IMG/VR virus record: IMGVR_UViG_3300025598_002228
Location: 5,029-69,028 of that record
DNA: 64,000 bases
Source of the DNA: a virus
Strand: one strand, 5' to 3'
Positions 41,444-62,306 of the stretch are shown here, in pieces. Below the pieces are notes generated by a model, which worked only from the letters and a program-made list of their open reading frames with translations, did not search any database and was not told the DNA's origin. Numbering within the stretch: position 1 is the first letter of the stretch; the number at the start of each line of letters is the position of its first letter. The translations under genes and the position numbers were made by a program.

Positions 41444-42769
41444 TTAATTGTTTTTACTGGTATATATTGATAACTCTTCAATGTCTTTAGGCGTTATGCC
41501 CATTTCTTCTGCTAAAGAAACTAATATCCACCCGAAGCTACCACTGCCCCAATCTATATCATATGCAGGCTCATCGCCATGCGGTGTTTGATAGGTGATT
41601 TTTTTTACAGTATTGATATTGTCAAGAGTAATGGGTTTTGTATGCTCATCATAGCCTTCATCTTGTCTTCTAAACTCCTCATTAAGTTTATCAACTATTG
41701 TTTGCAGATGGGCATGGTCGGTCTTATGCTCAGGCTCTTTATCCTGCTGTAAAAATTCTTTGGCAATTTTAATATAGTGGGGCAACTCTTCTTTATCTTG
41801 CTTACGTATATGCACCCCTTCCATCCTTATTTCGTTTATAATAAACTCAAGTTTCTGTAATAGATTTTTAAGGTCTGGGCTTGCCGATTCAGGAAGTTGC
41901 TCTAATTGCTTTTTCAAAAGGTCATTGGTATGTGCCCAGCCTTTTTTGATAAATGGTGTTATAATTTCATTCTTGTCGCCTAAAAGCCTCTCAAAATTCA
42001 CCAATACATAGTGAGCGTTCCATATTGCAGCCATTAATTCGGTATTCATCTCCCCGCCTTGTTTCATATGCTTTGTCGGGTCGTGCTTTGTGAACCTTTC
42101 TATGCTATGTTTCCCTGCAAATTGATAATTACCCTTATGGTCTTTTACATAGTGCCCCTCTGCCGCTTTATCATAATGGGAATAGCGATAAAGATTGCCT
42201 TGTGCATCATAAAAGGTTTCACCCTTAGTATACTTTTTTATTTCACCGCCATGTTGCATTTGTTCATCTACTGGGTCGCCTGTCTGTACTACCGCAGAGC
42301 CGATTACTTCACCTGTTTGAGGCGTTGGGTCGCCTGTGATTTTTTGTAATGTTATGGCTACTTTCCCCCCTTTCTCCCTCATCTCATGTAGCTTCTTTAG
42401 TTTCATTTCGAATATCCTGATTTTGCGCTCTAAGCTTTCTTTATCCTTACCTTCGATTTTAGGCACACGCATCTTAAATATCTTTACTTTTCTTTCTAAA
42501 GATATAATTTGTTCTTCGGTGCTTTTTTCTTCTGATTCAGTAGCTTTTGGCTGCTCATTCGGCTCAGGCTGATAAGATACATATGCATGAGGGTATTCTG
42601 TATCAATAAGGCTTTTAATGTCCTTAAAATATTTATCATCCACCGATACCTTTAGACTTTGAGGGTCTGAAAGTATGTTATCCTTAATATACGTGCCTAC
42701 ATTGATAGGTAGTAAAGCAAGGTTAATCCCTTCAAAATATTCTTTTACCGATGGTATTGCATTATCCAT
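41444..42769 (-). CDS. Multi-module soluble protein with 3 xxGG motifs
   Basis: MREKGG, MQHGG, MKQGG; TAATTTTG promoter at 42775-42782. Confidence 0.65.
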   Translation of the reverse strand: MDNAIPSVKEYFEGINLALLPINVGTYIKDNILSDPQSLKVSVDDKYFKDIKSLIDTEYPHAYVSYQPEPNEQPKATESEEKSTEEQIISLERKVKIFKMRVPKIEGKDKESLERKIRIFEMKLKKLHEMREKGGKVAITLQKITGDPTPQTGEVIGSAVVQTGDPVDEQMQHGGEIKKYTKGETFYDAQGNLYRYSHYDKAAEGHYVKDHKGNYQFAGKHSIERFTKHDPTKHMKQGGEMNTELMAAIWNAHYVLVNFERLLGDKNEIITPFIKKGWAHTNDLLKKQLEQLPESASPDLKNLLQKLEFIINEIRMEGVHIRKQDKEELPHYIKIAKEFLQQDKEPEHKTDHAHLQTIVDKLNEEFRRQDEGYDEHTKPITLDNINTVKKITYQTPHGDEPAYDIDWGSGSFGWILVSLAEEMGITPKDIEELSIYTSKNN

Positions 42770-42796: not shown

Positions 42797-45700
42797 TTAA
42801 TTTTTGTTGTATAATTTCGGGAATCTTTTTCTCAACTCCTTCTCGTTTTCATTATAATACCCACTCTCGAAAGCCAACATTATTTCCCGTGCATAGTTTC
42901 TGGGCTTTCCTTTAATGGCTGGGTACATAAATTCTGTGAGCTTATTATTATGTGCAGGTATTCTCGGCAAGCCATCCCTGCAAGATTCTTCGCCTATTTT
43001 ATAGGCTTCTCGTTTCAATTCATCTAAGTGAGGGTCTGACTTAGCAACCTTACCACCTTTTACAAGTAATTCTTCACCATGAAATAACCTGAGAAGATTA
43101 ACCAGCTTTTTATCGAACTCTACCCTACCCTTTTCAAGCTCTATGTCAAAAATCTGGTTGGTCTTTTTAAGTTGTTCAGCCATTTGATTAGCCTGTATCT
43201 CAGCTAAAGCCCTTGTCTCTTCTTCATGGATGCGGTTTTCTTCCTCTTTATCAACAACGGTCAGTTTCTCAATAAATATATCCTCTGGGCGTTTTTCTTC
43301 ATCCTGATAATCTACGGTGTCATCGAGCGTATCTTTTATGCGTTCAAATTGATTTGGCACTAATGCCACTGTAAGTTTGAATTTCTCTTGCAGATATTCA
43401 ACAAGGTTATCAATTTTAATGGCATTAATTTCCGCAATCATGTTGCCGCCAGACTTTTCAAACTGACCGTTCACAAGTCTTCGTATGAGGTCATCAAGAT
43501 AATACTGTCCACCTAATGATTTAGAAGCAGGTACAATGATTTTGTACTTTTCACCATTCATCCTGCTAAAAGTAAATTGACCTGATGCATAAAGGCTGCT
43601 ACCAAAAGTCATAGATTTAATCAATGGTAAGGCTTTAATCAATGGTACAGTAATACGAAGTGCCTCTTTATCTCTCTTACTTGATGGAGTGAACCCATCA
43701 GGCAGTAATATACCCTTCTTAATACCGCCTGTATTTGTAGTATAGCTAATTAAATTACCTTTCAATTCAGGAACGCCATATGCCTGTAATATGTTACCTG
43801 TAACAATATATCGAATAACGGTATCGCTGCTACTTTCAGCTATTATCTTATCCCAATTGTCTAATGTAGATGCGGTGTCTGATGAATAAATGTTTTCGTA
43901 TGTAAGGGATTTAATTGTATCTATCAATTCATATTTAGACATAGGTATAGCAATATAGCGTAGGCTGTTAGCTACTGCAAATCTTAACTTAATAGCAGAA
44001 GGTGTGTAAGGGTTTTTTGATTTATCATTTATCTGAAATCCTAAACATATTGCCTTATACCATGCCCTATCTATTGTATAGCTTACACTTGGGTAAGCCA
44101 CTACCCTGCCTACTTTGAAAAATTCAAACTCTTTTTGAAGTGAACGCAATCTGTTAGCCGAGCGCGACTTTGCAGATTCAAGTCTTTCTTTTCTGCCTTG
44201 CTCTAATGCTTTTTCCCTGTCATTTACATAGTCTCTCTGTGCCCTTGCATCGTAGCTTAATTTTATAAACCCTTTCTCGCTTGTTATCTCTTCTTTTTGG
44301 TTATCGTAGTGCTCATTTATTTCCTCTTCTTCATTTGCGAGGTTTTGCTCGAATATCATATTTAGTTTTTTGATATTCGCTTTTTGGAGTGATTCAGCAT
44401 TTGCAAACTCCCCTAAACTTTGCTTTAAAAGATTTTCAACCTCAATCTTTTTATATGGCTTTCTGAGGTTTACCACCCTGCATTTTTCTAATACCGAGTT
44501 ACGGCTAAATACGCTCTTGCCACCGATACCCGCTACTACGATTGTATTTTCAAGCGTTTCCGCTTTTAGGTCTACATCTTTTACTTCAAGGTCATATTGG
44601 TCAGTCTGTATTAAAAATTCTACTGTCGAAATATAACGGTTGCTTATTTCAGTGTAGAACTCTTCCTGCTCTTTACAAGATAATATAGCAACCCTGCCTG
44701 ACACCTTTTGCGCAGCATCTATAACTGTTGTTTTCTCTGAATCGGAATCTGATAGTTTTAGCGGGTCGCCTATTTTCTCATTGAACTCTTTATTTTCTAA
44801 GCAATACTCATACACTAACTGGTCGCCTATCTTATTTAAGAAATCAATATTAGCAACATCCATTAACGCCGCAGATTGTTTTTGATTTGAGGTTGTATTT
44901 GCATCCAGTGATTTTAATTTTTTCTGTAGCATCATCATCAACCTTTTCTCCGCAGGTATTGCACTAACTACATAGTCATAAATAGGCTTTAATATTTGAC
45001 CAGTCCTGTGTATTCTGCCTCTCTTTTGTACTTCGGTATTGATATTTAATTCTGCTTGTAAAATTATCATTACCCTTTGCCTCACCTGCTCCTTGCTTAC
45101 TCGCTTAGTTGGCATGGCGTGTGCTGATGCACCTGTACTACCTGATGTGTTAATCAATAAGCAGTCTGCTTCGTTATCATTAAATTGCCTGTAAGCATCG
45201 TTAACTGGGATTTTGTTTCTCGTTTTTACCAAAGCAGTGCCATCAGCATTTAATTTTAATTGCTTATTCCTGCCTGTTACTTCTAACACTTTATATCCAG
45301 CATTCTCAATCCTATCTAATAGCACATCAATAGGGCTACTGCTTATGCCTATAGATGTCTTTTTTATTTTTCGTAACAGCGTTTTATATGCTATTTGGAA
45401 AGATTCGTCCTGTTCAGATATATCTAACACTTTGTATTCTTTTTCACCTTTCGCATCTGATACGGTATATCTAAGTGTTGTATATAAACGTTTCTCTAAT
45501 ATTTTTGAGAAATCGGCATTTACGGTATCTCCTACCTTTATGCTTTCACCACTATCGCTGGTCATATTATCCAAAAAGCTTTCCATCGTATTGGCAAAGC
45601 CTATTACTGGTTTTTTGCCTTCTTTAAGTCGCTGTATAGCAACTTGCGCCACTGCATCAGCCTTTATAGAGAACAATAATTGATTGATAACATTAAATAC

Positions 45701-48607
45701 CCCGCTAAATATAGGTTGATTGGCAATGCCTACTTTGTTAGTACCTTTGGTTTTTTCGACCTGTTTATATTCTTTCTTGGCGATACTATCTGCCTTTGTT
45801 ATTACAGGGTCTACGTACTCCTCCTGAAACTCCATTATCTCCATGATGAGGGTTGTAGCGTTATCCATCATGGATTTATGGGTTTCCTCAAGGTTTAAAT
45901 CAGGATAGCCGCTATCTTCCTGCGATTTGTCGAGATATTTATAATTAACCTCTACCCCTTCAAACGAACGTTCTCTGCGTATTAGTTGCCCTTCCGATAC
46001 AAGGCTTGCAGATATTATTTCCTGTAAGGCTACACCGCCATTCGTTATAGCATAAACTAATGCCTCTGAATCTAAGTTCGAATCGCTCAAACATGTTTTA
46101 TCGGCATAAATAGGCATATTATCTGGTCGCTTTGCAAATGTCGCTGAAAGGAATGTACATCCTTTTGAATTTACCAGCATCTCCTTTAAAAACTCTCCCG
46201 TTTTTGAATCACCGCTCGCATTATGGCTCTCATCCATAATTACAATACTTCCCTTTGCCACACGGTTGATAAACTCGGTCTTTATACCTGCACGGTTGAA
46301 CTGTGAATAAGTTGAAAGTACAAGGTTATAAGGCTTTGCCAGCCTTCCTTTCAAAAATATTTCTTTTTGATTTTCGCCATTTAACCCCTTCGCTGTACCA
46401 GAAAAGCCTTCATATAAAATATTGCCGTTTTCGTCTTTTATAGAAGTCTTTTTGCCACCGCCATTTACAATAAATGGTATTACCCTCTTTTTACCTTTTG
46501 CCTCTTTATCATAGTTGGCATTCTTTCTGAATTTATCAACCTTTATCAATTCATATTTAGAATCCCAGTCTACCTCTTCGCCATCTTCTGATTCATCTTC
46601 ATCAGGTTCTTCAATACGCCTTTTTTCATAGACTGAATCTTCTTTTATTTTAATTGGTATTGCATCATCACTGCCTATTGCTATTAGGTCTCTGTATATA
46701 TCTGAAAACAGGTTGGGTTTTTCTGTGATAAAAATTGGTGTAATGCCTTGCAATAAAGCATACCGTATGATACCTGCCGCGACCCTGCCCTTTCCTGAAC
46801 CTGTGCCGTCTGCGATTATACAGCCCTGTCCTTTTACCTCAATATTATAAATAGCCTGTGCTATGGCATCTACCTGTTCCGCACTAAAGGCATCGCAAAG
46901 GCATTTTAAGCCAGCTTGTTTTTGCTCTATACTGCATTGCCCTACTATATAACCAAGTTTTAAAGCTACAAAAGCATCTACTCCATTTACACGCCTGTTT
47001 AGCTCTTGCATGGCTTTTGTAAGCTCATAACGCATACTTACAGGCACTATAAGGTCAACCGATTTGCAGGTCTCTGATACGGGCTGGTAAGATAGGTCAA
47101 GTAAAACAGGGTTTTGAGGTTCTATTTCTTCTAATGGCGATGCATGGGCTTCTGTCTGCTCAATGGTCTTTACTATTTTGGTTTCATCTTCGGTTTCTTT
47201 TGTTTCTGGTTGGTGGTGGGGTTCATCTGCCGTATGGTTTTCATTAAAATATAGCTTATCAAGTTTTTGGGCAAGTTCCGATGGGGAATATAATTTTTCT
47301 TTACCGAATGTTTCTACAGTATCAAGATATTCTTCTTTGCCGTTTTTATTCATATAGACAACAAGGTCTTTAGCTGATGTGATTTTAAATACCAAATCAT
47401 CATTTCTGGACATCTTAAAGCTATTGGATGTAATATCGAAAACATTATAATCCTTTTTTAGCTCATCAATTAATTCCCTGCCATAGCTTTCAGGCACTCC
47501 CCAGCGTATACCGTATACGAAATGCTCTTCATCTTCAAAATTAGGCTTTTCTGTATTCATGTATAACTCTGTTATCTTGTCGGCTATATAATGTGGAGAA
47601 TAGGGTTCTTTATCCTCTGATATGTATTTTATTGAATCTAAATAACTTTCATCATCTCCAACAACTAAATAAACAAGCAAATCCTCAGAGCTATCTTCAA
47701 TCAAAAATGTTTTGCCCTCATCTTTACTTATCCTAAAGCCTGTTCCATGCATATCGAATATATCGAAACCACTCAGGTCATCTATAACTTTTTTCCCATA
47801 GCTTTCAGGCACTCCTAAATGTTTGCCATAAACGAAATGCCCTTCAACTGCTTGCTTTTCGTTTTCTTGGTCATAAATGTCGTATATCCTGCTTTTTAGC
47901 TTGTAAATAGATACGATACCTTCGGTAGTATCGTAGGCAATATCGGCAATGTGCTTATCGCTTTCTTTATCAATTAAATTAAATTCACCGCCATTGTCAT
48001 TTACTATTACCTTTTTACCATCAGGTTGGCTAATAGTAATTTCCCCTTTCTTTATGTTTGATACGATAAAGCCAGAGCCTTCTAATGCATCTATCAGCCT
48101 TTTTCCATCATTCTTTGGTACGCCATAGCTTGCGCCATATGTAAATTGATTTGGCAGATTTGTTTCTTTACCATCAAAAATATCGTGTATCTCTGATAAG
48201 GCTTTTTGAGTTTCCCCATATTTTTTTTTCATAACCTCCGAAAACATCTTAGGGGTAAAATAAAAATCAAGTTCTACCCCTCTTAATTGAATCAGGTTCT
48301 CGATATTTATATATCCCCATTCAGCATTTTCTCTGTCTCCGTTTAATATTGCATAGCCAAATGCCTGTAATTGGTCTTTCTCTTCGTCTTTTTCCACAAT
48401 GTACCAATCGGACTGTGCTGCAAAATAATGCAGATATACTATTTTATCATCTGCATTTATATTTTCGGTTTCATATGTAGATGGAGTTTTTTCTATTGTT
48501 TTCTCTAATCTTTCACCCACCTCTTTTAGCTCTCCGCTAAAGTTACGAGTTGCCTGTAATTGAACTTTAGGTACAAAATGCTTCAATAATCCTATGTTGA
48601 TTGCCAT
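42797..48607 (-). CDS. Strawberry-notch-type SF2 helicase polyvalent protein with DUF2958-like N-domain and three ~100-aa repeats
   Basis: IADGTGSGKGR, DESHNA, FLSATFAKRP, EVTGR, GSTGASAH, QKRGRIHRTGQ; SDWYIVE..FGY..EWGYI; F.YG...GVP...G...ID.L x3; promoter TATCTTTG 48625-48632. Confidence 0.85.
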   Translation of the reverse strand: MAINIGLLKHFVPKVQLQATRNFSGELKEVGERLEKTIEKTPSTYETENINADDKIVYLHYFAAQSDWYIVEKDEEKDQLQAFGYAILNGDRENAEWGYINIENLIQLRGVELDFYFTPKMFSEVMKKKYGETQKALSEIHDIFDGKETNLPNQFTYGASYGVPKNDGKRLIDALEGSGFIVSNIKKGEITISQPDGKKVIVNDNGGEFNLIDKESDKHIADIAYDTTEGIVSIYKLKSRIYDIYDQENEKQAVEGHFVYGKHLGVPESYGKKVIDDLSGFDIFDMHGTGFRISKDEGKTFLIEDSSEDLLVYLVVGDDESYLDSIKYISEDKEPYSPHYIADKITELYMNTEKPNFEDEEHFVYGIRWGVPESYGRELIDELKKDYNVFDITSNSFKMSRNDDLVFKITSAKDLVVYMNKNGKEEYLDTVETFGKEKLYSPSELAQKLDKLYFNENHTADEPHHQPETKETEDETKIVKTIEQTEAHASPLEEIEPQNPVLLDLSYQPVSETCKSVDLIVPVSMRYELTKAMQELNRRVNGVDAFVALKLGYIVGQCSIEQKQAGLKCLCDAFSAEQVDAIAQAIYNIEVKGQGCIIADGTGSGKGRVAAGIIRYALLQGITPIFITEKPNLFSDIYRDLIAIGSDDAIPIKIKEDSVYEKRRIEEPDEDESEDGEEVDWDSKYELIKVDKFRKNANYDKEAKGKKRVIPFIVNGGGKKTSIKDENGNILYEGFSGTAKGLNGENQKEIFLKGRLAKPYNLVLSTYSQFNRAGIKTEFINRVAKGSIVIMDESHNASGDSKTGEFLKEMLVNSKGCTFLSATFAKRPDNMPIYADKTCLSDSNLDSEALVYAITNGGVALQEIISASLVSEGQLIRRERSFEGVEVNYKYLDKSQEDSGYPDLNLEETHKSMMDNATTLIMEIMEFQEEYVDPVITKADSIAKKEYKQVEKTKGTNKVGIANQPIFSGVFNVINQLLFSIKADAVAQVAIQRLKEGKKPVIGFANTMESFLDNMTSDSGESIKVGDTVNADFSKILEKRLYTTLRYTVSDAKGEKEYKVLDISEQDESFQIAYKTLLRKIKKTSIGISSSPIDVLLDRIENAGYKVLEVTGRNKQLKLNADGTALVKTRNKIPVNDAYRQFNDNEADCLLINTSGSTGASAHAMPTKRVSKEQVRQRVMIILQAELNINTEVQKRGRIHRTGQILKPIYDYVVSAIPAEKRLMMMLQKKLKSLDANTTSNQKQSAALMDVANIDFLNKIGDQLVYEYCLENKEFNEKIGDPLKLSDSDSEKTTVIDAAQKVSGRVAILSCKEQEEFYTEISNRYISTVEFLIQTDQYDLEVKDVDLKAETLENTIVVAGIGGKSVFSRNSVLEKCRVVNLRKPYKKIEVENLLKQSLGEFANAESLQKANIKKLNMIFEQNLANEEEEINEHYDNQKEEITSEKGFIKLSYDARAQRDYVNDREKALEQGRKERLESAKSRSANRLRSLQKEFEFFKVGRVVAYPSVSYTIDRAWYKAICLGFQINDKSKNPYTPSAIKLRFAVANSLRYIAIPMSKYELIDTIKSLTYENIYSSDTASTLDNWDKIIAESSSDTVIRYIVTGNILQAYGVPELKGNLISYTTNTGGIKKGILLPDGFTPSSKRDKEALRITVPLIKALPLIKSMTFGSSLYASGQFTFSRMNGEKYKIIVPASKSLGGQYYLDDLIRRLVNGQFEKSGGNMIAEINAIKIDNLVEYLQEKFKLTVALVPNQFERIKDTLDDTVDYQDEEKRPEDIFIEKLTVVDKEEENRIHEEETRALAEIQANQMAEQLKKTNQIFDIELEKGRVEFDKKLVNLLRLFHGEELLVKGGKVAKSDPHLDELKREAYKIGEESCRDGLPRIPAHNNKLTEFMYPAIKGKPRNYAREIMLAFESGYYNENEKELRKRFPKLYNKN

Positions 48608-48654: not shown

Positions 48655-51600
48655 TTAGCGTATTTTGTCTACCCTAATCCATAAGTCCTCAAACGTTTTA
48701 ACAACTTTTCCGCTATTGGTTTCTGTTGCCTCTAATGTTTCATTAAGCAACGGCGGGAACGCTGGTTTCTTTCTCCTGCCATTAATCAATATAAGCCTTA
48801 TATCAAATGCTGTGCCCTGCCGAGAATATAATGCGTGTCCGTCTATATTAATTACATCTTCTACATCATATAACTCATTAAGCAACACAAAGAAAGACCT
48901 ATTTTTACCTGCCTGTATTCTGCCCTCTTTATCCCAAGCACTATGACCACCGATAATAATTGCAGCCTTACCCTCATCTTTCATGGTCTGTAAGGCATTT
49001 AATGCCATAGTGTGTTCCAGCGATGTTATCTTATAGCCGTTATAATCAATAGCATCTACCGCACCAAACGGGGGATTAGTTAACACGGCATCGAACTTAT
49101 TGTCAAACCCATTAAAATGCTTGGTAGCATCCTGATTTAAAACTTCTTTGAAATTTTGAAACTTCAAATCTTTAAGTCGTTGTTTGTCGAGTTCGTTTAC
49201 TATAAATTCATCGGGATAGCCTGCAATGGTGAGTGCCCCATTACCTGCACTCGGTTCAAAATATAAAGCGGTCTTTTTATTTGACCCTATACCGCAATAT
49301 AAGCCCATAAGATAGCCTATCGGTATCGCAGTGGAATATTGTTGCAACTTGATGGATTCACTCGACCTGTGGCTTAAATTGGGCTGATTAAAATATAGCT
49401 TTACGAGTTGTTCGTATTTCTGTTTCTCGGTCAGTTTGCCTTTAAGTGAAATCTCTCTGCCTTTTAATATGATGGCTAACTCGGTCAGTTCTTTAATCTG
49501 TGTTTTATCGGTGATTTCATACTTAGCAGCAATTTTTTCAACACTGCTTTTATTATGCTTTACCTCTGATTCAATGTCTACAAATAGTTCAGATACAAAT
49601 TTATATTCATCTGCTGTTAATGCTGTAAGGTTGTATTCGTAGTTTTTTATTTCCGTGTCAATTAAATCCAACTTATCAGCTATTATCTTTTGCATACTCA
49701 TCATAAAAAGTAATTCCTCCAGCTTTTTTTCAAATGATTTGGTGAGTTCTCCGCCACTGCTATAAATAGGTTCATTAATCAATTCACCGTTACGCCTTAT
49801 AATTCGCGTTTGGTCTTTATCGAATACAACGGTTTGAAATGCTGGATATTTTGCCTGAACAGCATCGTAACCTTGCTCTTTGAGGAATTTTATATCTTCT
49901 TCGTTTATATGCTCAACTTCAATTCTCTTATTGGTATAGGGATTTTTAACTTCTGAAATATGAGTACCATTATTTATAATAAATGGCTTATTTATGAATA
50001 ACTGAACCTCATATTTATTCTTGCCATATTTAATTAATGTATCTGCCTCATTAAAATAGATTCCTTTGTTAGTAAGAGAGTGTTTACGTGTATATTCTTT
50101 ATCGCCTGCCTGAGCAAATTTATCGAATATGGCATCAGAATAATGAATGTATAATTTAGGCATTTTAATATTGCCTCCATTTTCTTTTTTCATAGGGTCG
50201 TTGCCCCAAATTAACAGCGAGAGATATTTACGGGTTTTATTGCCGTTTTTATCTATCAGTTCACCATGATTACCAGACATGCGCTTTATAAACCTTATTT
50301 GCCTTTCTGCCCACTCCCACATTTTTGGTGTCCATTCCTGCGATGGCAGTTCTTTCATTTTAATTATCCATCTTGCCGATTCCCTGCCGTAATGTATGCC
50401 AAGATTATGCGCCTGCTCTGATGACAGCCCTGCCTTTTTTCCCTCTTCACTATTGTAAAAGACTTGTAATTCTTTTGCCGACATGTTTACAAGTTCTTTC
50501 CATATTTTGTATATGTGTGCATTTTCGCTTTCGAATTGACCGCCTTGCTTATATTCGGTAAGTACGTTAATATTATTTTGCAAATAGTCCTCAAGTGCAG
50601 GAATAAGATTATACTCAAAAATATCATTAAGATTAGTTAGCCATGCTACATCGGCATTTTCATAGTTAAGCGATATATCAATGGGGTCTTTTAACTCTAC
50701 ATAATAATAATGAAAATCATAGCCCTCAAATGGTAGGCTTTCTATATGCTCAATATACATATCTCCTTCATAGCCTATTTCTTCCTGTATCTCCCTCTTA
50801 ACTGCTGTGTCTTTATCTTCTCCCGCATCTACCCCACCGCTAAGGATATGCCACATGCCGTCCGTGCTTTCTCCAAGCCTGCCCCTTTTTAGTATCAAAT
50901 AGCCGTGCTCAGGATGGTATATTATGCATCCTACGGTTTGATGCTTTAAATCCCCGCCATCCTCATATCTTATATCAGGGTTATGTGGGTCAAATGTTGT
51001 GTTAGTACCGTCAGCAAGTTTTATTTGTTCGGGGTTAAATGCAATATATTCCTTTATACCTTTTCCAAACTCCGATATTAAACCATTGTAGTTTTTATCC
51101 TTTAAATGATTATATACTTTATCCGTTACTAACTCCTCCATAAGCTCACCTAATTCACCCAATCCTACATTTTCATCTAAAAATGATAATGCTTTTTTTG
51201 ATTCCATTTTTTTTCCGAAAAGTGCAAATACAATATCCGATGCTTGCTTTTCATTTGTAAATAGTCCTGCAATTGTAAAATCTAAAGGTTTTTTGATAGA
51301 TAAAAATGCCGATATAATTCTATTGCCAGCCCCGTTTTCTTTTGTAAAGTTTTCTGCTAACCCTCTATCAGCAATAAAAAAGAAACCATATTTGGTGTTT
51401 TCCCAGCCCGTATTTTTACCTTTTGTTTTTAAATCAAACTTCCAAAATTCTGTATTAGTGCCATGATAAACCACAAGAGGCTCTCCGTTCTCGTCAACTA
51501 CTTTTGATGCATTAGCAGGGTCATGCAGCCAGTCACCAAACCAAGAAATAAACTCAGGCGTTCTTACTAATTTATATTGCTCTGGTGTAAGATTTGAAAT

Positions 51601-53676
51601 CTTACCATTAGGCGCGAGCAATATCTCTCCGCCATCGGCATATTTTATATCATTTGGTATAGCTAAGTTTTGTGCTATGGCTTCAATAGCTTGGTCTGTT
51701 ACCTCTTTTTTTATCCTTCCATTTTCATCATAATAGTCGCCTATATAATCACCGAAAATAGAAGATTGAGGCGCAGCAATATATATTATAATGCCATCTT
51801 TTTGTTTTATCCTAATAAAATCTGGTGACTCGTCATCTTGTGATAATGCCATATTGTATATGCGACTTACACTATCAGCATAGGCATAATAATCTCCATT
51901 TATATAAATATAAACATCACTATTTTTATATTGCTGGTTGCTATTTTTTAAAAAAGCCAGCATTTTATTCATAGCACGTTTACCATTATACAATGATAAA
52001 TATTTTAAAATTATTTGTCGTGCTGTTTTATCATAAGGACTATCGGTGTTATTAAGAACTATTACTTTGGGCTTTTTTATTTCTTCTTTTACATTGCTAA
52101 TTGTAAATTTTTCCACCTCTCCGCCATCAGCATATTTCTTATGCTTGATATGAAGTTCATCCAGCAAATCATCATCTTGTATATAGTTACCGCTTTTTGA
52201 ATAGCCGTGCTCCGCCTTAAAGATAAAAGCATTAAGCCTTGCTAATCCCCATGCCATTCTCGAATTAGGCTTACCATCGGTTATAGTCGGTCTATGTGTT
52301 ACACTATATGCACCCATGCCTCTCCTTACAACTGCTTTGGCAGCATCCGATGATATTTTCTTTGATGGGTTTAATTTATTATATTCAGAAACCTTATGCT
52401 CAATTATTTTTACGATGGCAGCACTTAGTTCTATATTTTTTGCATGATTAAGGTCACTTGCACTATTCGGTGCATTTTTTTCTGAACAATGAATCCTATC
52501 TTTCAATGGGGCTGGTGTCTTAGAAGGATTAATTTCCCCACCATCTTCATGTTTAACTATACCGCCTTTATGCAACTCGGTTAATTCAATCAACTTTCCG
52601 TGCTTTATGAAGTCGTCTTGTAATTCAGGTATAAGATAATGCGTTTTTAGGGTAGAAGCACCATGACCGACTTTATTGGCAGCATACTTTACACATTTAT
52701 TGAACTCCCTCTTTCTTTTTTTCTCATCATTAATATCTTGCAGGTTGCATTTTTTTAACCTATCCAAGATATAATAATTAGCAGCATAACCGCGAATATC
52801 TTTCACCGATATTTTGTACTCTGATAAATACCTGTTTATTCGGTCAGCCTTTATCTGAAAGCCATCTTTAGTACAAAAGATAAAATCGCAATTAGATTCC
52901 TTTATAGCCCTTCTTAACTCCGATGCTAACAACTCATCAGTAAACTGTTTATTCTGCTCTGTACCTGATTTCCCGATATAATTCAGATATACGGTGTTTC
53001 CATCTATCTTGATGTGTTTTTTTTGTAATCCCGTAACTCCTACATGACCGTTGGCTGCTGATTCTTCATTGCCTACCCTCTCAGATGTTTTGTCAATAAC
53101 GGCTATTGCGAGAGCGGTAAGCCTGTCTTTATCATTACCCGATTTAATATCTCTGGTTACATTATTGCGTAAGCTTTGTATAGATTGTGCTATACTGGTG
53201 ATATGTTCTTTTTTTTTATCCCAGCGTTGCTTTAATTCATGGGGCGTTGCTTTAGGGGCTATCTTGCCACCTTTTTTCATGGTACTTTTACCAAAGCTTA
53301 CATTACAAGACTTTTCAGCTTGCATTTCATCCAATATCTGCCTTACAGTACCTTTGCGATTATGGGGTGCAGGGTCGAGCACTACGAGCCTGCACAGTAT
53401 AAAATCCCCGCTATCTGCATGGTGTTTATCAAATTTACATGAAAATTCATTATGGATATAGTCAAGAATTTTTTTATTGGTTTTATTGGTAAAAGTGAGA
53501 ATCTCATCCGAGTTATATGCATCTTCACATATCTTCATTTCGGAGCGTTCAACTTCGACCATCTGACTGCCATCAACAACTACTTTTATACCGCCGAGCG
53601 GATTACCGTGTTCATCGTAGTGCCTCTCCCCTACATACATGGGGCTTTTTGTATCATGGCTTTTTGTCATAATCAT
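48655..53676 (-). CDS. Polyvalent protein: TopIB, DUF5824-like, ADP-ribosyltransferase, Nudix, DUF3140, second ART-like, N6-adenine MTase
   Basis: RVGN/GKSG/KDIR/VGH/HYL; RRGMGAY..WGLARLNAF; VVYHGT..GFFF..EYIAFNPEQIK; GGVDAGE..AVKREIQEEIG; LVNMSAKEL..SLLIWGNDP; QYST/EPSAGNG/NPPF. Confidence 0.85.
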   Translation of the reverse strand: MIMTKSHDTKSPMYVGERHYDEHGNPLGGIKVVVDGSQMVEVERSEMKICEDAYNSDEILTFTNKTNKKILDYIHNEFSCKFDKHHADSGDFILCRLVVLDPAPHNRKGTVRQILDEMQAEKSCNVSFGKSTMKKGGKIAPKATPHELKQRWDKKKEHITSIAQSIQSLRNNVTRDIKSGNDKDRLTALAIAVIDKTSERVGNEESAANGHVGVTGLQKKHIKIDGNTVYLNYIGKSGTEQNKQFTDELLASELRRAIKESNCDFIFCTKDGFQIKADRINRYLSEYKISVKDIRGYAANYYILDRLKKCNLQDINDEKKRKREFNKCVKYAANKVGHGASTLKTHYLIPELQDDFIKHGKLIELTELHKGGIVKHEDGGEINPSKTPAPLKDRIHCSEKNAPNSASDLNHAKNIELSAAIVKIIEHKVSEYNKLNPSKKISSDAAKAVVRRGMGAYSVTHRPTITDGKPNSRMAWGLARLNAFIFKAEHGYSKSGNYIQDDDLLDELHIKHKKYADGGEVEKFTISNVKEEIKKPKVIVLNNTDSPYDKTARQIILKYLSLYNGKRAMNKMLAFLKNSNQQYKNSDVYIYINGDYYAYADSVSRIYNMALSQDDESPDFIRIKQKDGIIIYIAAPQSSIFGDYIGDYYDENGRIKKEVTDQAIEAIAQNLAIPNDIKYADGGEILLAPNGKISNLTPEQYKLVRTPEFISWFGDWLHDPANASKVVDENGEPLVVYHGTNTEFWKFDLKTKGKNTGWENTKYGFFFIADRGLAENFTKENGAGNRIISAFLSIKKPLDFTIAGLFTNEKQASDIVFALFGKKMESKKALSFLDENVGLGELGELMEELVTDKVYNHLKDKNYNGLISEFGKGIKEYIAFNPEQIKLADGTNTTFDPHNPDIRYEDGGDLKHQTVGCIIYHPEHGYLILKRGRLGESTDGMWHILSGGVDAGEDKDTAVKREIQEEIGYEGDMYIEHIESLPFEGYDFHYYYVELKDPIDISLNYENADVAWLTNLNDIFEYNLIPALEDYLQNNINVLTEYKQGGQFESENAHIYKIWKELVNMSAKELQVFYNSEEGKKAGLSSEQAHNLGIHYGRESARWIIKMKELPSQEWTPKMWEWAERQIRFIKRMSGNHGELIDKNGNKTRKYLSLLIWGNDPMKKENGGNIKMPKLYIHYSDAIFDKFAQAGDKEYTRKHSLTNKGIYFNEADTLIKYGKNKYEVQLFINKPFIINNGTHISEVKNPYTNKRIEVEHINEEDIKFLKEQGYDAVQAKYPAFQTVVFDKDQTRIIRRNGELINEPIYSSGGELTKSFEKKLEELLFMMSMQKIIADKLDLIDTEIKNYEYNLTALTADEYKFVSELFVDIESEVKHNKSSVEKIAAKYEITDKTQIKELTELAIILKGREISLKGKLTEKQKYEQLVKLYFNQPNLSHRSSESIKLQQYSTAIPIGYLMGLYCGIGSNKKTALYFEPSAGNGALTIAGYPDEFIVNELDKQRLKDLKFQNFKEVLNQDATKHFNGFDNKFDAVLTNPPFGAVDAIDYNGYKITSLEHTMALNALQTMKDEGKAAIIIGGHSAWDKEGRIQAGKNRSFFVLLNELYDVEDVINIDGHALYSRQGTAFDIRLILINGRRKKPAFPPLLNETLEATETNSGKVVKTFEDLWIRVDKIR

Positions 53677-54851: not shown

Positions 54852-57611
54852 CTATTCAATAGGAAACATACCTGCTGTATAGGTGTCATAAAGTTCAAAT
54901 AAAAATTCAATTCTCTTTATGTCTGTTGTAAAAGCAGGTTCTCGATAACATTTATCAACTGCTTTATCAAGCATATGGTGCGCCTGCAATAATTCATGAG
55001 GCATTAGTGATGTATCGTAAAGGTCTGCAAGGGAACTTCCCTCTCTAACGTATATTTCTCTTATATCAATTACCCTTTGGGCAGCTATCTCAACCGCATC
55101 TTTTTTTCTTTTTAGAATCCCGTTTGGAAATGGGAAGTTATTGTAAACAATTTCATTGCTGTATCTGTAATCACTTTTTATTCTTCCGCATACATACTTA
55201 ACCCAAGCCATATGCATAGCTGACGAGATAATGCCAAACTGGTAAAGTGTTGCATTGTCTATTGCTAGGCAACTATCACTTGCAATATTATTACTTGAAA
55301 AAAAACCAAAGGGTATATAATTCCTATTTTCAGATGAATGTCGTGGGATTAAGACATAATTTGATTTAGGCTGTCTAATTTCACCAAATAAATACGGGGT
55401 AGATGCCAATTTCTTCGTTGCTTCCCTGTTACTCTCTATACGATGCTTCCTAACTGCCTGCACGCGCTTATAAATTGCTGTTAAGCTCTTCAATTCATTT
55501 GGTTTAATTCCGACCAACCAAAGACACCATCTTTTTTTTCCATTAAGGTATTCATGGGCACTCAACAATGGCTTTATCCATTTTCTGGCGTTTGGCTCTT
55601 CTTTTATCAATTCCTTTTTTTCTTCGTCTGAGAGTAAAAGATGTCCTCCGTCATTTGGCATACTTCCGAATGATATTTCTGCCACATTGCATATTGGAGT
55701 TCTCCTCTTTAAAATTGTCGTGTCGTTCCCTTGAACTAAATAAGGGTTGATATTTCTCACTTTAAATCTATTAGGCTCACCCTTAATGTTATCATATTCA
55801 TATAGTAATTTATCTTTTAGGTTTTCCTTGCCAAATCCAATAACCACACAGTGAACAGCCGCTACACCTTCTGCCTCATTATGCCATCGAAAGGTTTGAT
55901 GAGCAAATTGAATTTTCAGTTTATATTTTCTAAATAAATAGCTCCATAAAATCCCCGTTTGTTCTCCCTGTGCAATACTATTTGTACTTACTAATGCAGT
56001 TCGTGTTTCTGTATGTACTTTCATGTATTCTGCTGCTTTTATATACCAACAAGCAACATAATCTAAAACGCCGTAACCATTAGCCTCGCTTAGTATTTTA
56101 TCAATATCTATTTTCTGCTCTGGCGATTGATGTTGCTTGCCAATGAACGGGGGATTACCTAATATGTATGAAAAGCTTTTGCCTTTTTTGTTTGTATCCC
56201 AATCTATATTTAAAGAATTATCATTCACAATAACAGCAGCTTCATCCAAAGGTATTGTAGGAACAGCTTTGCCAAATTCACTTTCAAGTCTCATGTTCAT
56301 TTGGTGTTCGGTTAGCCATAAAGCTACCTTTGAAATCATTGCAGAGGTGGGGTCAATTTCGTACCCATAAAAATTTTCAAGCGGTACATTACTTAGCCAA
56401 CTGGCATCTAGCACTCTTGTTCCTTTATATATTTTTCGGATTATCTCAATATCTAACAGACGCAATTCACGATATGTAACCACCAAGAAGTTGCCACATC
56501 CACAAGCGGGGTCTAAGAAAGTTAGTCCGTTTATTTTTGCTCTAAATCTCTCCAATGTGGATTTGTTGGTCTTTATATTTTCAAACTCTTCATGCAGGGT
56601 ATCGAGAAATAGTGGCTCAACAACTCTCTTAATGTTTTTTTCAGAGGTGTAGTGAGCACCCAAAGACCGTCTTTCGTCATTATTCATTACAGCTTGGAAT
56701 AGTGAGCCAAAGATTACAGGTGAAATATCTGACCAGTCATAAGCGCAACAATCTAAGAGGGCATCACGCAGGGCATTTGTTGTTGTTGGGACTTTGTGTA
56801 GTTTTATATTAAACAAATCTCCATTTACATAAGGGAACTTTGAAATGACCCCACTTAATATTTTGCGATTCTTTTTGTTAGTATTTAGTGTATCAAACAA
56901 AGAAAGTAAATGTTCACCAAGTGTTTTACCAGTCGTATATTCTCTAATATAATTTTCGAATTGTTTTTTTTCAAAAATGCCAGTATCCTCAGCAAATAGA
57001 CAAAAAAGGATTCTTGCTAATAAAATTGCAATATCATTTGAGTTGTACCCCTTGCGTTCAATAGCGTCATATACATTTGCAATTCGTCTTGCTGCTTCTT
57101 GATTTACCTTTTCCTCATCGGATTCTAAACGATTGGCAAACTCAAGAAAGAAAGCAAACTCATCTATTTTCGTTCCAATGTTTTCAAGCGGAACTTCAAT
57201 TTCAAATGAAATCTTTACTTTATCTGACTTGCTCATTTCGACAGAATACTTTTGTATTCTTTTGAAGTTCATTAGCAAAATAAATTGAGGTCTTTGATGT
57301 GGTAATAGGTTTTCAATATATTCCTCTGCTTGATGGAGCGTTTTATCCCAATGCTTAGGGTTATCCAAATGTGCCGATTTAGATTCAATAATTAGCTTAC
57401 CCGACCAGAACAAGTCAGCAAAGCCAGTTCCTGTTTCGTCTTTCTTTTGAATTGGCTTCTCGAATTGCGCCAAGTTCTTCCTATCGAGACCAAAGATTTT
57501 AAAAAACTCATTGGTAAATGTTTGCGATTCCGCCCTTTCTGTAGTAGTGCCTCTCCAACGAAGAATAAATGCCTCCGCACTATCTTTCATTTGTTTAGTT
57601 ATGATGGTCAT
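54852..57611 (-). CDS. MmeI-family Type IIL restriction-modification enzyme
   Basis: FADLFW..KLIIESKS nuclease, LGAHYTSE, FLDPACGCGNFL, GNPPFIG, SDYRYSNEIVYNNFPFP; 919 aa. Confidence 0.92.
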   Translation of the reverse strand: MTIITKQMKDSAEAFILRWRGTTTERAESQTFTNEFFKIFGLDRKNLAQFEKPIQKKDETGTGFADLFWSGKLIIESKSAHLDNPKHWDKTLHQAEEYIENLLPHQRPQFILLMNFKRIQKYSVEMSKSDKVKISFEIEVPLENIGTKIDEFAFFLEFANRLESDEEKVNQEAARRIANVYDAIERKGYNSNDIAILLARILFCLFAEDTGIFEKKQFENYIREYTTGKTLGEHLLSLFDTLNTNKKNRKILSGVISKFPYVNGDLFNIKLHKVPTTTNALRDALLDCCAYDWSDISPVIFGSLFQAVMNNDERRSLGAHYTSEKNIKRVVEPLFLDTLHEEFENIKTNKSTLERFRAKINGLTFLDPACGCGNFLVVTYRELRLLDIEIIRKIYKGTRVLDASWLSNVPLENFYGYEIDPTSAMISKVALWLTEHQMNMRLESEFGKAVPTIPLDEAAVIVNDNSLNIDWDTNKKGKSFSYILGNPPFIGKQHQSPEQKIDIDKILSEANGYGVLDYVACWYIKAAEYMKVHTETRTALVSTNSIAQGEQTGILWSYLFRKYKLKIQFAHQTFRWHNEAEGVAAVHCVVIGFGKENLKDKLLYEYDNIKGEPNRFKVRNINPYLVQGNDTTILKRRTPICNVAEISFGSMPNDGGHLLLSDEEKKELIKEEPNARKWIKPLLSAHEYLNGKKRWCLWLVGIKPNELKSLTAIYKRVQAVRKHRIESNREATKKLASTPYLFGEIRQPKSNYVLIPRHSSENRNYIPFGFFSSNNIASDSCLAIDNATLYQFGIISSAMHMAWVKYVCGRIKSDYRYSNEIVYNNFPFPNGILKRKKDAVEIAAQRVIDIREIYVREGSSLADLYDTSLMPHELLQAHHMLDKAVDKCYREPAFTTDIKRIEFLFELYDTYTAGMFPIE

Positions 57612-57728: not shown

Positions 57729-58676
57729 TTGCAAGTTATGATTAGTGTTTCTGGATTTAAAAGTGTTATAGCGGTTTTAGATTTTTTCAATACAAAAGAA
57801 AAATGCGTTGCTTACCTTGAGCAACAGAGATGGACAAATGGAGTCTGTTGCCCTAATTGCGGTCACGAAAAGGTATATCGCACGGCTCGCGGATTCAAAT
57901 GCGCCAACAAAGAATGTACACGAAAACATTTCACAGTTATATCGGGAACTATATTTGAAAATACTAAGATAGAATTACGTTACTGGTTCGCGGCTATCTA
58001 TTTAATCACAGCTCACAAAAAGGGTATCTCTTCACATCAGCTTGCTCGTGACTTAGGAGTAAGTCAAAAAACTGCATGGTTTTTAAATCACCGCATTCGT
58101 GAAATGATGCGTGTAAAATCTCCTCAGATATTAAGTAATGTAGTAGAGGTGGATGAGACTTTTGTTGGAGGAAAAAATAAGAACAGGCATAAGGATAAAA
58201 AAGTTGAAAACTCACAAGGGAGAAGCGTGAAAGATAAAACGCCAGTAGTCGGAATGATAGAGCGGGGAGGTATGCTTATTACAATGAAAGTAAAAGATAC
58301 AAAAGGGAAAACCTTAATGCCTGTAATCGTGAAAAATGTCAAAGAGGGGTCAACTGTTATGACTGATGAATGGGGTGGCTATAACAAGCTACGAACTAAA
58401 TTTGACCACATGGTTATCAACCATAAACTTGGCGAATATGTCAATGGTGATATTTACACAAATAGCATAGAGAACTATTGGTCACTCTTCAAACGTGGCA
58501 TCATTGGAATATACCACCACATCAGCGAAAAGCACCTTGACCGCTATTGTGATGAATTTGCTTACCGATTTAATTCACGTACTTTAAATGACCGTCAAAG
58601 GTTTGAAACTACACTTACAAATTGCAGTGGTAGATTAAGTTGGAACAACCTTGTTTTCGATACTGAAAGAGTATAA
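57729..58676 (+). CDS. IS1595-family (ISXO2-like) DDE transposase
   Basis: CPNC..C Zn ribbon, KKGISSHQL..QKTAW, VEVDETF, TDE, TNSIENYWS.FKRG, EF.YRFN. Confidence 0.95.
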   Translation: MQVMISVSGFKSVIAVLDFFNTKEKCVAYLEQQRWTNGVCCPNCGHEKVYRTARGFKCANKECTRKHFTVISGTIFENTKIELRYWFAAIYLITAHKKGISSHQLARDLGVSQKTAWFLNHRIREMMRVKSPQILSNVVEVDETFVGGKNKNRHKDKKVENSQGRSVKDKTPVVGMIERGGMLITMKVKDTKGKTLMPVIVKNVKEGSTVMTDEWGGYNKLRTKFDHMVINHKLGEYVNGDIYTNSIENYWSLFKRGIIGIYHHISEKHLDRYCDEFAYRFNSRTLNDRQRFETTLTNCSGRLSWNNLVFDTERV

Positions 58677-59403: not shown

Positions 59404-60054
59404 TATAATTAAAATTAAAGTTATGGATAATATTTTAGGTAAAACAAAAACCGATTTAATTATTGAACCACAAGTTTTAATTGACTGGACAAGTGATGTG
59501 ATGGTAGCCTCTTTCGCTCACAGGGCTTTATACTATCATACATCATTTAAAAAAAGAATTTATATGTCTGCACAGCAATTATTCGATGAACATTTAATAA
59601 ACTTTAGAGAAACCGTATTCAAAAATACACTAACAATTGAACGCCTGACCAGTATATTAGAGCATATGTCTAAGGGGTGTATAGCAAAATACGTTTTAAA
59701 TGACTATGTAGGATACGCGTTTTTAGATGAACACAGAAAAGTATAACCTGAATGTATATAGCACATCTAAATTGGCTACATCAAGCCTTACTTGCAGACT
59801 TGCACTTTCTTCAACAGTAAAGGCAACATCCAAATTCTCACTAATAATGGCTTTAACCCATGTTCCTGCATTACCGCTGCCTCCATGTATGCTCAAAGCA
59901 AAATTGTTGTCTCCATCAAGTTGGGATATTGTAAATGTATTTGTGTTAGCAGGGAATTGTATTATTTCGGATTTTAAAACCGATTTTTCTCGGTCAGAGC
60001 AAAGAATAAGATTGATAATGTTCATATAATTGAAATTAAAGTTATGGATAATAT
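59404..60054 (+). repeat. 30-bp direct repeat spanning two gene starts
   Basis: TATAATT(A/G)AAATTAAAGTTATGGATAATAT at 59404-59433 and 60025-60054. Confidence 0.8.
59423..59746 (+). CDS. Hypothetical protein
   Basis: Starts MDNIL within the direct repeat. Confidence 0.55.
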   Translation: MDNILGKTKTDLIIEPQVLIDWTSDVMVASFAHRALYYHTSFKKRIYMSAQQLFDEHLINFRETVFKNTLTIERLTSILEHMSKGCIAKYVLNDYVGYAFLDEHRKV

Positions 60055-60253
60055 ATTGCAAGAGGAAAAACAAAGTGAGTTTAGGGAAATAACTAATGAA
60101 GAAAGCAATAAGTATTTCCTTGAGCTAATAGAGAAAATTCGTGAACCGTTTGCATCCGAATTTAGAGCCATATTAGAAAAATATCCTAACCCATGTAAAG
60201 AGAGGGCAGATTTAGTTACGGATGCTATAAATCGTTCTTACGAAAAACTTTAA
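60044..60253 (+). CDS. Hypothetical protein
   Basis: Starts MDNIL within the direct repeat. Confidence 0.55.
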   Translation: MDNILQEEKQSEFREITNEESNKYFLELIEKIREPFASEFRAILEKYPNPCKERADLVTDAINRSYEKL

Positions 60254-60549
60254 ATTTCTTGAAATATTATCAATACCTCATCCCATCTCACGGTTTCAAT
60301 AAATAGCTTACCGTTTTCATCATTAAGCCATGATTTGATTTTGTATTCATGGACATCGAATACAATAAAAGCGTCAGTATCATTTTTCCTAATGATTGTC
60401 CATGCCCTATATTTTTGTGATTTTATGAGAATTTTGGTATTATACCTATCACCGCTCGGTGCTATTCTTTGTGTAAAGAACTCATATAAATTTCCGTCTG
60501 AACTATCAAATATTTTGCCATATAAACTTTCAATCGCTATGTTATTCAT
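60250..60549 (-). CDS. Hypothetical protein
   Basis: 99 aa ORF. Confidence 0.45.
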   Translation of the reverse strand: MNNIAIESLYGKIFDSSDGNLYEFFTQRIAPSGDRYNTKILIKSQKYRAWTIIRKNDTDAFIVFDVHEYKIKSWLNDENGKLFIETVRWDEVLIIFQEI

Positions 60550-60855
60550 TTATGGTTTTTTGGGCAATTTATTTGAATTATCAAATCGTGGTATATTTGA
60601 ATTATAAACAACAAATAAACCATAAAGTCATGGTTTATTTGTTTCAGGCTTTTTGAGTGTTTATATTAAGATTATGCTATTTAAAGAACTTACGAAATTG
60701 TCAATGGAAGCACTGGCGAAGCAACAGTCAGTGACACTTGAACAGGCAAAAGCGCAAACAAAAAGGGTACAGGAAAGGATTTCAAAAAAGAAAGAAGTAC
60801 CCGACAAAAAAATCACCGAAGACCCTGCGGATAAGCCTATTTCTTTTCAGGCAAG

Positions 60856-61158
60856 TTAAAAATCGAATAAATCTTTTGGATGTATATTCAGTGCATCGCA
60901 TATTGCTTTTATATGCGTAAGGCTTGTATTGGCTTTGCCTAATTCTATTCGGTTAATGGTACTTTCTTCAATATCGCACATATAGCCCAAAACTTCTTGG
61001 GTTAACCCCTTATCCTTTCGTATCTGCCTGACTTTTAAGCCAAAGGATATTATAAAGTTTATATGCCTTGTTCTTTTCACATTGAATATTGTAAAAAGAA
61101 TACGAAAACGAGATTGTGATATATGCCTGCTTGTGATTTTTAATATATATTTGGGCAT
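60856..61158 (-). CDS. XRE-family HTH regulator
   Basis: FGLKVRQIRKDKGLTQEVLG...INRIELGKANTSL...LNIHPKDLF; true start probably internal. Confidence 0.85.
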   Translation of the reverse strand: MPKYILKITSRHISQSRFRILFTIFNVKRTRHINFIISFGLKVRQIRKDKGLTQEVLGYMCDIEESTINRIELGKANTSLTHIKAICDALNIHPKDLFDF

Positions 61159-61180
61159 TATTTAACTTAAAAACAACTCA

Positions 61181-61750: not shown

Positions 61751-61777
61751 ATTTTTAAATCAATAAATCAATAAGCA

Positions 61778-62230
61778 ATGAAAAAATCCTTCTTTTTCGG
61801 CATTTGCGCCTTTCTTTTAATTACGGCTATCAGTTCTTGTTCTAAGAATAACTCTGCTCCTGATTTAACTACGAACCTTGTTGGTGTATATTCAGGTAAT
61901 ATTGGAGATTCTCTTTATAGCGGTTCTTCATACACGCAAGCATCAAGTAGCGTAACTGTTACTAAAATTGACAATACGCATATTCAGGTAACGCCACAAA
62001 CAGGCTATATTCCTTTTACAGCTACTCTCACAGGCACTACTAATGGAGATTATATTGCAGTAAATTCGGGTACAGTTAACGGTACTACGTATGTTGGTGG
62101 TACATTCAATAGCATATCTATACCAGCAGGATTTAATGGACTATTCAATACGAATACCAATCAGTTTGCATATAGCTTGAATGCAAATAACGGCAATGGA
62201 TTTACGGAGCAATTTGTTGGAACTAAATAA
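61778..62230 (+). CDS. Lipoprotein
   Basis: MKKSFFFGICAFLLITAISSC lipobox. Confidence 0.75.
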   Translation: MKKSFFFGICAFLLITAISSCSKNNSAPDLTTNLVGVYSGNIGDSLYSGSSYTQASSSVTVTKIDNTHIQVTPQTGYIPFTATLTGTTNGDYIAVNSGTVNGTTYVGGTFNSISIPAGFNGLFNTNTNQFAYSLNANNGNGFTEQFVGTK

Positions 62231-62252
62231 TAGAATAGCTTTCCGAAAGTTT

Positions 62253-62282: not shown

Positions 62283-62306
62283 ATTTAGCAAAAATAAGTA
62301 ACAAGG

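Follow-up and report, generated by a model that had tools for sequence, protein, structure and literature searches.

A conserved di-glycine heptad at the module junctions of a viral polyvalent protein looks like a cutting or packaging signal

Polyvalent proteins are regarded as the weapons that a phage delivers before any others, which poses the question of how such chains of enzymes are packaged, moved and activated. One of them, P0001, is encoded on a 64-kb stretch of DNA, here called the window, from the single IMG/VR virus record IMGVR_UViG_3300025598_002228 (69,028 bp in total; G000), and its modules are joined at a short motif built around two adjacent glycines (GG). The locus raises the further question of what, if anything, reads this motif. 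The answer proposed here is that the junction heptad, which recurs throughout a group of related viruses, looks like a cutting or packaging signal.

P0001 is read from one uninterrupted frame of 1673 amino acids (aa) in which, as an earlier note on this DNA had claimed, nine modules follow one another. They are given from the N-terminus on, together with the helicase gene that adjoins the frame:

48655..53676, minus strand, P0001, the polyvalent protein
53272..53676, minus strand, N-terminal module, aa 1-135, first in all 18 family proteins
52567..53265, minus strand, topoisomerase IB module (Pfam aa 147-346, E 2.8e-24)
52126..52536, minus strand, module aa 381-517, no family match; the tblastn match H13 aligns with aa 389-516
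51634..52119, minus strand, module aa 520-681, no Pfam family
50959..51627, minus strand, ART-PolyVal module (Pfam aa 728-895, E 4.4e-25)
50545..50952, minus strand, NUDIX module (Pfam aa 911-993, E 2.2e-10)
50179..50538, minus strand, DUF3140-like module (Pfam aa 1059-1154, E 5.7e-5, 23.9 bits with a cut-off of 25)
49756..50172, minus strand, second, divergent ART-like module (ART-PolyVal aa 1169-1307, E 1.5e-4, sub-threshold)
48658..49749, minus strand, helical lead-in and N6-adenine methyltransferase (MTase) module (weak Pfam matches at aa 1497-1576), the MTase half of a DarB-like dyad
42797..48607, minus strand, P0002, Sno/SNF2-type helicase of 1936 aa (Pfam AAA_34 and Helicase_C_4)

According to Pfam, the chain unites topoisomerase IB, ART-PolyVal, NUDIX, DUF3140 and MTase, biochemically unrelated domains, in one open reading frame (ORF). 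The labels topoisomerase IB, ART and Nudix, which the earlier note had given from the letters alone, are upheld by these matches, those of DUF3140 and the second ART lie below the cut-off, and that of the MTase is weak. The label 'DUF5824-like' for aa 380-517 was not borne out: Pfam gave no match at E<=1, phmmer did not link the segment to the module with DUF5824 in the related virus record G001, and DUF5824 was absent from all of 14 family members. Residues 1-135, 380-517 and 520-681 found no family in Pfam, and residues 1309-1420, a segment conserved in the relatives, no credible one at E<=1 (the sole row was a chance-level ApoB100_C, E 0.039; LPD36 was not seen there). The DUF3140 module is 60% identical to one placed elsewhere in the G001 protein, the relatives of P0001 carry PBECR5, Kinase-PolyVal, LPD3 and LPD23 domains, and a near-identical protein of 1671 aa (P0003) is publicly recorded on 6 contigs.

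The N-terminal module has five invariant residues (H19, C50, C80, C95 and C124), no Pfam match at E<=1 and, as best Foldseek match in the PDB, one with E 1.6; its AlphaFold2 (AF2) model reached a predicted local distance difference test score (pLDDT) of only 70. A protease or a known fold in this module found no support, the ESM Atlas lead (0.79-0.80, including a cluster of crAss cargo proteins) being below the meaningful level.

As in the Dar system of phage P1, an MTase and an SF2 helicase lie beside other anti-restriction cargo, and an N-terminal element likely directs packaging. Unlike in P1 DarB, the MTase and the helicase are not fused and lie on two separate, adjacent ORFs 47 nucleotides (nt) apart; P0001 and P0002 together represent, in split form, the DarB-like methylase-helicase pair known from polyvalent proteins (PMC5512222). 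The domain content and this setting identify P0001 as a phage-type polyvalent protein, with predicted self-contained enzyme cassettes behind an invariant N-terminal module, which agrees with the earlier assignment to a bacterial virus (enzyme modules, ART-PolyVal, adjoining helicase). It resembles the polyvalent proteins of the main text of PMC5512222 (Iyer et al. 2017) in being a large virus-encoded enzyme chain with ART-PolyVal, MTase, Nudix and a methylase-helicase theme, for which delivery with the DNA is predicted and zincin-like processing has been proposed; it differs from those described there in that its modules are punctuated by a conserved junction motif. The word 'topoisomerase' occurs in that text only in the reference list, in a title about Toprim.

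Of the 12 GG dipeptides in P0001, 9 stand at the 8 module boundaries, which bears out the claim that an xxGG signal is found at every domain boundary. The other three lie in folded or conserved parts, at aa 28 (N-terminal module), aa 947 (Nudix) and aa 1576 (MTase). The junctions are:

53260..53280, minus strand, junction 1, TMKKGGK (GG at aa 136-137; MKKGG at nt 53271; among 14 aligned relatives, 90% or more retain the GG)
52531..52575, minus strand, junctions 2 and 3, LHKGGIVKHEDGGEI (GG at aa 371 and 379; LHKGG at nt 52566, HEDGG at nt 52542)
52114..52134, minus strand, junction 4, KYADGGE (GG at aa 518; YADGG at nt 52125)
51622..51642, minus strand, junction 5, KYADGGE (GG at aa 682; YADGG at nt 51633)
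50947..50967, minus strand, junction 6, RYEDGGD (GG at aa 907; YEDGG at nt 50958)
50533..50553, minus strand, junction 7, EYKQGGQ (GG at aa 1045; YKQGG at nt 50544)
50167..50187, minus strand, junction 8, KKENGGN (GG at aa 1167; KENGG at nt 50178)
49744..49764, minus strand, junction 9, IYSSGGE (GG at aa 1308; YSSGG at nt 49755)

All of these positions are within 3 nt of those first quoted, except that of LHKGG (52566, quoted as ~52540). From 244 non-redundant GG contexts in 19 family proteins a consensus of 7 residues was drawn, [Y/F/M]-x-x-G-G-x-[I/V/L/M], with K/R preferred just before it (position -4 relative to the GG). Position -3 is Y/F/M (48%, enriched 3 to 7 times), position -2 E/K, position -1 D/K/E, position +1 E and position +2 I/V/L (55%); the unit has two hydrophobic anchors at a spacing of six residues. 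While polyvalent proteins are a known class, this conserved junction heptad appears to be undescribed so far. Full-text literature searches found no such motif described in phages, in polyvalent proteins or for Gly-Gly processing in phage virions, and the matches listed for the motif strings were all unrelated, those recognised being papers on fluorescent proteins. In the main text of PMC5512222, its supplementary files apart, 'linker', 'glycine' and 'boundar' have 0 occurrences.

A comparison with background, which the earlier note had suggested, gave 6 copies of [YFM]xxGG in P0001, whereas 1000 shuffles that preserve the composition averaged 0.83 copies and never exceeded 5. The raw GG count of 12 is only modestly above the ~8 estimated from composition; the signal lies in the context and position of the GG, not in their number. 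It has to be held against reading the motif as a cut signal that the pattern was written post hoc, after P0001 and its relative G001 had been seen, so that a check on independent sequences is important; it did turn up again in proteins that had played no part in its definition. The N-terminal module led to 17 relatives, of which 13 were above every shuffle, 2 equalled the maximum and 2 (P0017 and P0020) were not enriched. The strict heptad was counted 17, 25, 15, 13, 22 and 44 times in six whole genomes of the group, with shuffle means of 2.1-2.9 and maxima of 6-7, an excess of 5 to 15 times; in each genome most of the copies belong to a few large proteins, two to five in number. The whole genome of G000 (69 kb) accounts for 17 of these (2.1 expected) or about 24 by eye, in line with the earlier estimate of about 20 copies in soluble proteins.

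The motif could have been a general feature of polyvalent proteins, a possibility that we rejected: six such proteins from Bacteroides, crAss-like, Pseudoalteromonas, Pseudomonas and Shewanella phages hold 0, 0, 2, 0, 1 and 1 strict heptads, altogether 4 in 20,880 aa, versus 5 in the 1673 aa of P0001. Of the four ART modules from other phages that were examined, three start with APNGKP and have no GG in front of it; a Pseudomonas phage ART match has a GG just upstream. A DNA repeat or recombination signal was likewise rejected, because the 21 motif sites of G000 use all four glycine codons in varied flanks (the 24-mers are 53% identical on average), and with such varied codons the motif is not carried along as a DNA repeat. 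These comparisons support the view that the motif is a selected, lineage-wide feature acting at the level of the protein.

How closely the motif follows the borders of the cassettes can be judged from the relatives. The 2180-aa polyvalent protein of G001 has three modules in common with P0001, in a different order and each bounded by GG on both sides. Among the 19 family proteins, 42.5% of the BLASTP alignment ends (n=2367) fall within 5 aa of a GG, versus 9.1% for random positions, and the median distance to a GG is 6.5 aa versus 33.5 aa. The tblastn matches to unrelated phages also start or end at junctions (starts at 681-688 or 1309, ends at 904-908), that to Bacteroides phage BS-TP4 beginning at aa 1309 of P0001. 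Some relatives have up to ~8 ART cassettes in tandem, each ending with NPDIR[YF]xxGG, after which follows [SE][IV]LLAPNGK; exceptions are found in P0010 and P0012, each of which has an ART cassette that lacks the GG. A DUF3140 module placed last in its chain ends just short of the expected GG site, and the G001 chain stops 5 aa past a junction, its MTase being encoded by a separate ORF, whereas G000 has both fused. From these alignments the motif is seen to mark the points at which cassettes have been gained, lost and reordered between relatives.

Such gene fission and fusion at the junctions would also be expected if the heptad were a passive hinge, in other words a flexible linker or a capping turn that happens to be favoured, moves along with the shuffled modules and is read by nothing. 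The motif does sit between independently folding domains, and GG is a classic flexible element. Linkers do not, however, normally conserve an aromatic residue or Met at -3 and I/V/L at +2 across proteins of 30-60% identity and between unrelated modules; proteins without homology to one another share the motif in six genomes; polyvalent proteins with the same ART module but from other lineages lack it; and the codon variation leaves no room for a carry-over as DNA repeat. We therefore regard the passive hinge as unlikely, and infer instead that the motif acts in cis as a signal, and that the virus itself encodes the factor which reads it.

If the signal is read by a protease, the following sequence of events can be proposed. 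The N-terminal module would bring the whole chain into the particle, where the junctions would then be cut in trans, and the enzymes thus set free would pass into the host together with the DNA; the motif may serve as an anchoring tag prior to cutting. We favour such proteolytic release, at somewhat less than an even chance, because enzymes with unrelated targets are strung together, because a putative core metalloprotease is at hand, and because the main text of PMC5512222 proposes for this class that the chains are processed by zincins. Since a peptidase family is embedded in 0 of 14 family members at E<=1e-3, any cutting would be in trans. In this respect the P0001 family differs from the zincin-bearing polyvalent proteins proposed in the main text of PMC5512222, in which, supplements apart, neither a junction code nor a trans-acting core zincin was found.

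The best candidate for the protease would be a conserved stand-alone gene, the only protease candidate found:

30680..31489, minus strand, 269-aa HExxH zincin-like metallopeptidase with a beta-sandwich, a core gene of the group

It stands alone, ~17 kb from P0001, is encoded on 70 IMG/VR contigs, and its family has 465 cluster representatives in a library of 1.84 billion proteins; tblastn of the protein against 50,697 GenBank phage records gave no match. Residues H195, E196, H199, E209 and D213 are invariant in 68 aligned sequences. In the AF2 model (pLDDT 95) an N-terminal beta-sandwich is followed by a helical core in which the HExxH helix precedes a helix carrying the Glu (helices 186-202 and 209-222). 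The closest Pfam family is SprT-like (E 1.1e-3, 19.2 bits, below the cut-off); the fold had no match in the PDB or BFVD at E<=1e-3, and a profile search against PDB sequences gave 0 matches at E<=1. Foldseek matched the N-terminal beta-sandwich only (best E 3e-3), with a weak likeness to carbohydrate-binding or jelly-roll domains. A complex prediction of the zincin (alignment A2) with residues 660-705 of P0001 gave scores of 0.54, 0.01 and 0.01, which speak neither for nor against binding.

Cutting after GG is familiar from eukaryotic viruses, the adenovirus protease AVP and pS273R of African swine fever virus (ASFV) processing several virion proteins at a common GG-X site, and the earlier note had pointed to both. 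A maturation of this kind, with a cysteine protease of clan CE or CA (C5, C48, C63 or C39 type) cutting after the GG, would fit the GG at every junction. The inverted terminal repeats of G000 and a weak match to a HerA/FtsK-type ATPase (DUF87/HerA-Zot) also suit it, both features being found in the PRD1-adenovirus lineage as well. The proteases themselves did not turn up: in six-frame searches of G000 and four relatives, Peptidase_C48, C5 and C39 were each over the cut-off in 0 of 5 genomes (C63 was not searched by itself), the sole C39 trace being a 14.7-bit match in G001 that crosses stop codons, and Pfam scans of 62 window proteins revealed neither a cysteine nor a serine protease. The adenovirus cleavage rule, as stated in the available text of PMC4246237, places M, I or L at P4, (M/I/L)xGG, and 0 of 9 junctions fit it, the hydrophobic residue being one position further out (P5, not P4). 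The resemblance to adenovirus sites that had been suggested is thus not borne out, and we consider a cysteine protease very improbable.

Cargo trimmed in the head of bacterial viruses is a further known system: the internal proteins and Alt of T4 and the inner-body proteins of phiKZ are targeted to the head and trimmed at a short shared consensus, (L/I)xE or (S/A/G)xE, by serine-type prohead proteases. The present case differs from these in its Gly-Gly motif, and in the window neither a prohead protease family nor a hallmark gene of tailed phages was detected.

Several observations weigh against release by the zincin. The weak carbohydrate-binding or jelly-roll likeness means that its substrate could be something else. 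Within 10 kb of the gene, at 70 loci, the motif is found 127 times versus 57.9, 2.2 times as often, and is clearly enriched at 10 of the 70; this association with the immediate neighbourhood is weak, most cargo genes being further away. In the genomes G004 and G005 the heptads often form tandem 6-residue units, e.g. KYADGGMMARGGYV, an arrangement more in keeping with a tag for binding than with cleavage. A complete heptad forms the very end of three ORFs (GGKL*, GGEI* and GGKL*) and one more ends 5 aa after the motif, where ~0.5 ending in a full heptad would be expected by chance (a rough estimate); a cut at the three complete ones would remove only two residues. Finally, N4 virion RNA polymerase is packaged unprocessed (main text of PMC5512222), and P1 DarB, the model example of such methylase-helicase pairs, is packaged as an intact 250-kDa protein by way of an N-terminal signal of 30 residues, no GG code being reported in the available text of PMC9024508.

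Some of these observations lend themselves to a second explanation, in which the heptad is a tag for packaging or anchoring and is never cut. It would be a short linear peptide with a binding partner in the virion, for instance a scaffold, the portal or the inside of the capsid. There would once have been one tag per cargo protein, gene fusions would have made the tags internal, and the chain would stay intact, held at many points. Besides the tandem units, the ORFs ending in or just after the motif and the short targeting peptide of DarB, this explanation has in its favour that the residues beside the GG vary while the two hydrophobic anchors are kept, and that copies occur near N-termini, at aa 14 and 32 of two of the other carriers, which are:

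25430..26899, minus strand, 489-aa protein with a DUF6496 domain and 8 motif copies, the first at aa 14
41444..42769, minus strand, protein of 441 aa, its gene immediately downstream of that of the helicase, with the motif at aa 134, 174 and 238 (3 copies)
26956..30339 in G001 (L007 6956..10339), 1127-aa protein downstream of the helicase, with 10 strict heptads (~11 by eye), one of them at aa 32

The helicase P0002 has one copy itself (LLVKGGKV), 85 aa from its C-terminus. The 1127-aa protein of G001 contains a RelA_SpoT nucleotide pyrophosphokinase domain (E 1.3e-13) and is a putative delivered effector.

A similar device is known in the cargo-loading peptides of encapsulins, which are short, contain Gly and hydrophobic anchors, lie in linkers or at termini, and dock cargo enzymes to the inner shell; the heptad, whose own docking is putative, is without sequence relation to them. 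One tag per protein would suffice, yet nearly every module boundary has one, and the invariant N-terminal module already looks like a targeting element. Nor is there an overall enrichment at the termini (4 copies at most 5 aa from the C-terminus versus 3.2 expected, 11 at most 20 aa from the N-terminus versus 10.6), the final modules of P0001 and P0011-P0013 are without a tag, and no receptor is known. Taken for itself the tag is a possible, if somewhat doubtful, explanation, and we rate it as about as likely as cleavage.

Cleavage and anchoring can be combined into a cargo code, in which every delivery-bound protein of this Bacteroidota-associated group would bear the heptad, and the core metalloprotease with its jelly-roll would first anchor the chain and then cut it into at least 9 enzymes. 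Of this wider proposal we are distinctly doubtful.

G000 belongs to a large virus group that appears to be uncultivated. Related genomes span 56-102 kb, some of them with inverted terminal repeats, and the gene order of G001 is the same as that of G000. Only five gene families were detected by BLAST in all six related genomes (the criterion was presence in at least 5 of 6, and all five proved to be present in 6 of 6):

19441..19935, core family
30680..31489, core family, the zincin described above
34016..34756, core family
37468..38376, core family
38339..39544, core family

The five core proteins have 164, 246, 269, 302 and 401 aa. The weakly HerA-like ATPase is among the five; as putative packaging ATPase it gave 0 matches against PDB sequences, and a core protein of 246 aa had no usable match in the ESM Atlas. 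Among the 62 window proteins scanned with Pfam there was no family of terminases, portals, HK97-type capsids or prohead proteases, and the virion of the group may be non-tailed; the literature matches listed for a described tailless group of Bacteroidota viruses with inverted terminal repeats held no counterpart of the present one. Many small membrane proteins are encoded in the window. A phosphatidylserine decarboxylase gene (14370..15077, minus strand, E 1.7e-33), which adjoins that of a flavodoxin-like FMN_red protein, may have to do with lipids, either in the host envelope or in a particle that contains a membrane.

The end type of both G000 and G001 is given as inverted terminal repeats in IMG/VR. 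Those of G000 are ~4.5 kb long and near-perfect (3 mismatches in 4500 bp; 59423..64000 of the window and, beyond its limits, the initial ~4.5 kb of the genome), those of G001 much shorter (~100-150 bp). The G000 repeats bear genes, including an IS1595-type transposase, of which there is one copy at each genome end, and two tRNA-like genes found with ARAGORN (63420..63495 and 63554..63628, minus strand), with irregular anticodon loops of 2 and 4 bases. A TnpB/OrfB_IS605 gene and IS1595-type transposases lie at:

7303..8472, minus strand
57729..58676, plus strand
62307..63320, minus strand

The best bacterial relative of the transposase in the terminal repeat is encoded in a metagenome-assembled genome of Chitinophagales (80% identity), and the next seven are all from Bacteroidota (49-56%), a weak hint that the host may be found there.

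Other genes, set apart from the junction motif, are the following. Large Gly-rich proteins, fibre- or beta-helix-like (16235..18931 of the window, minus strand; also L025 17227..20283 and L041 17440..19122), have regular [ST][IV]GGG repeats, a pattern that differs from the junction heptad and is separate from the finding. Directly upstream of the polyvalent gene lies that of a complete restriction-modification enzyme of the MmeI type (type IIL), none of the five MmeI domains being absent (54852..57611, minus strand). A DnaB-like replicative helicase is seemingly interrupted (4538..7303, minus strand), ORF 5951..7303 having the N- and C-terminal domains of DnaB and ORF 4538..5818 the end of DnaB_C together with an intein-splicing domain whose match falls slightly short of the cut-off. 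Cell-wall hydrolases are of three types (minus strand):

26892..27620, GH108 with a C-terminal membrane anchor
10977..11666, SLT transglycosylase
3604..4221, GH19-like

What the finding means depends on how the heptad is read. The survey of 2017 could only propose self-processing by embedded zincins (main text of PMC5512222). A chain without an embedded peptidase, but with a junction motif common to other putative cargo proteins, offers a precise and cheap experimental handle. If the heptad is merely a hinge, the finding shrinks to a well-documented, lineage-specific linker. The cargo code, if true, would be a bacterial-virus counterpart of polyprotein maturation, independent of the cysteine proteases of adenovirus and ASFV, with a cargo that is freely reprogrammable via cassette swaps at the junctions. 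If the heptad is a cut site or a packaging tag, cargo proteins would become predictable from their sequence alone, the recombination of cassettes exactly at the junctions would be explained, and phage particles could be loaded with foreign proteins in a modular way.

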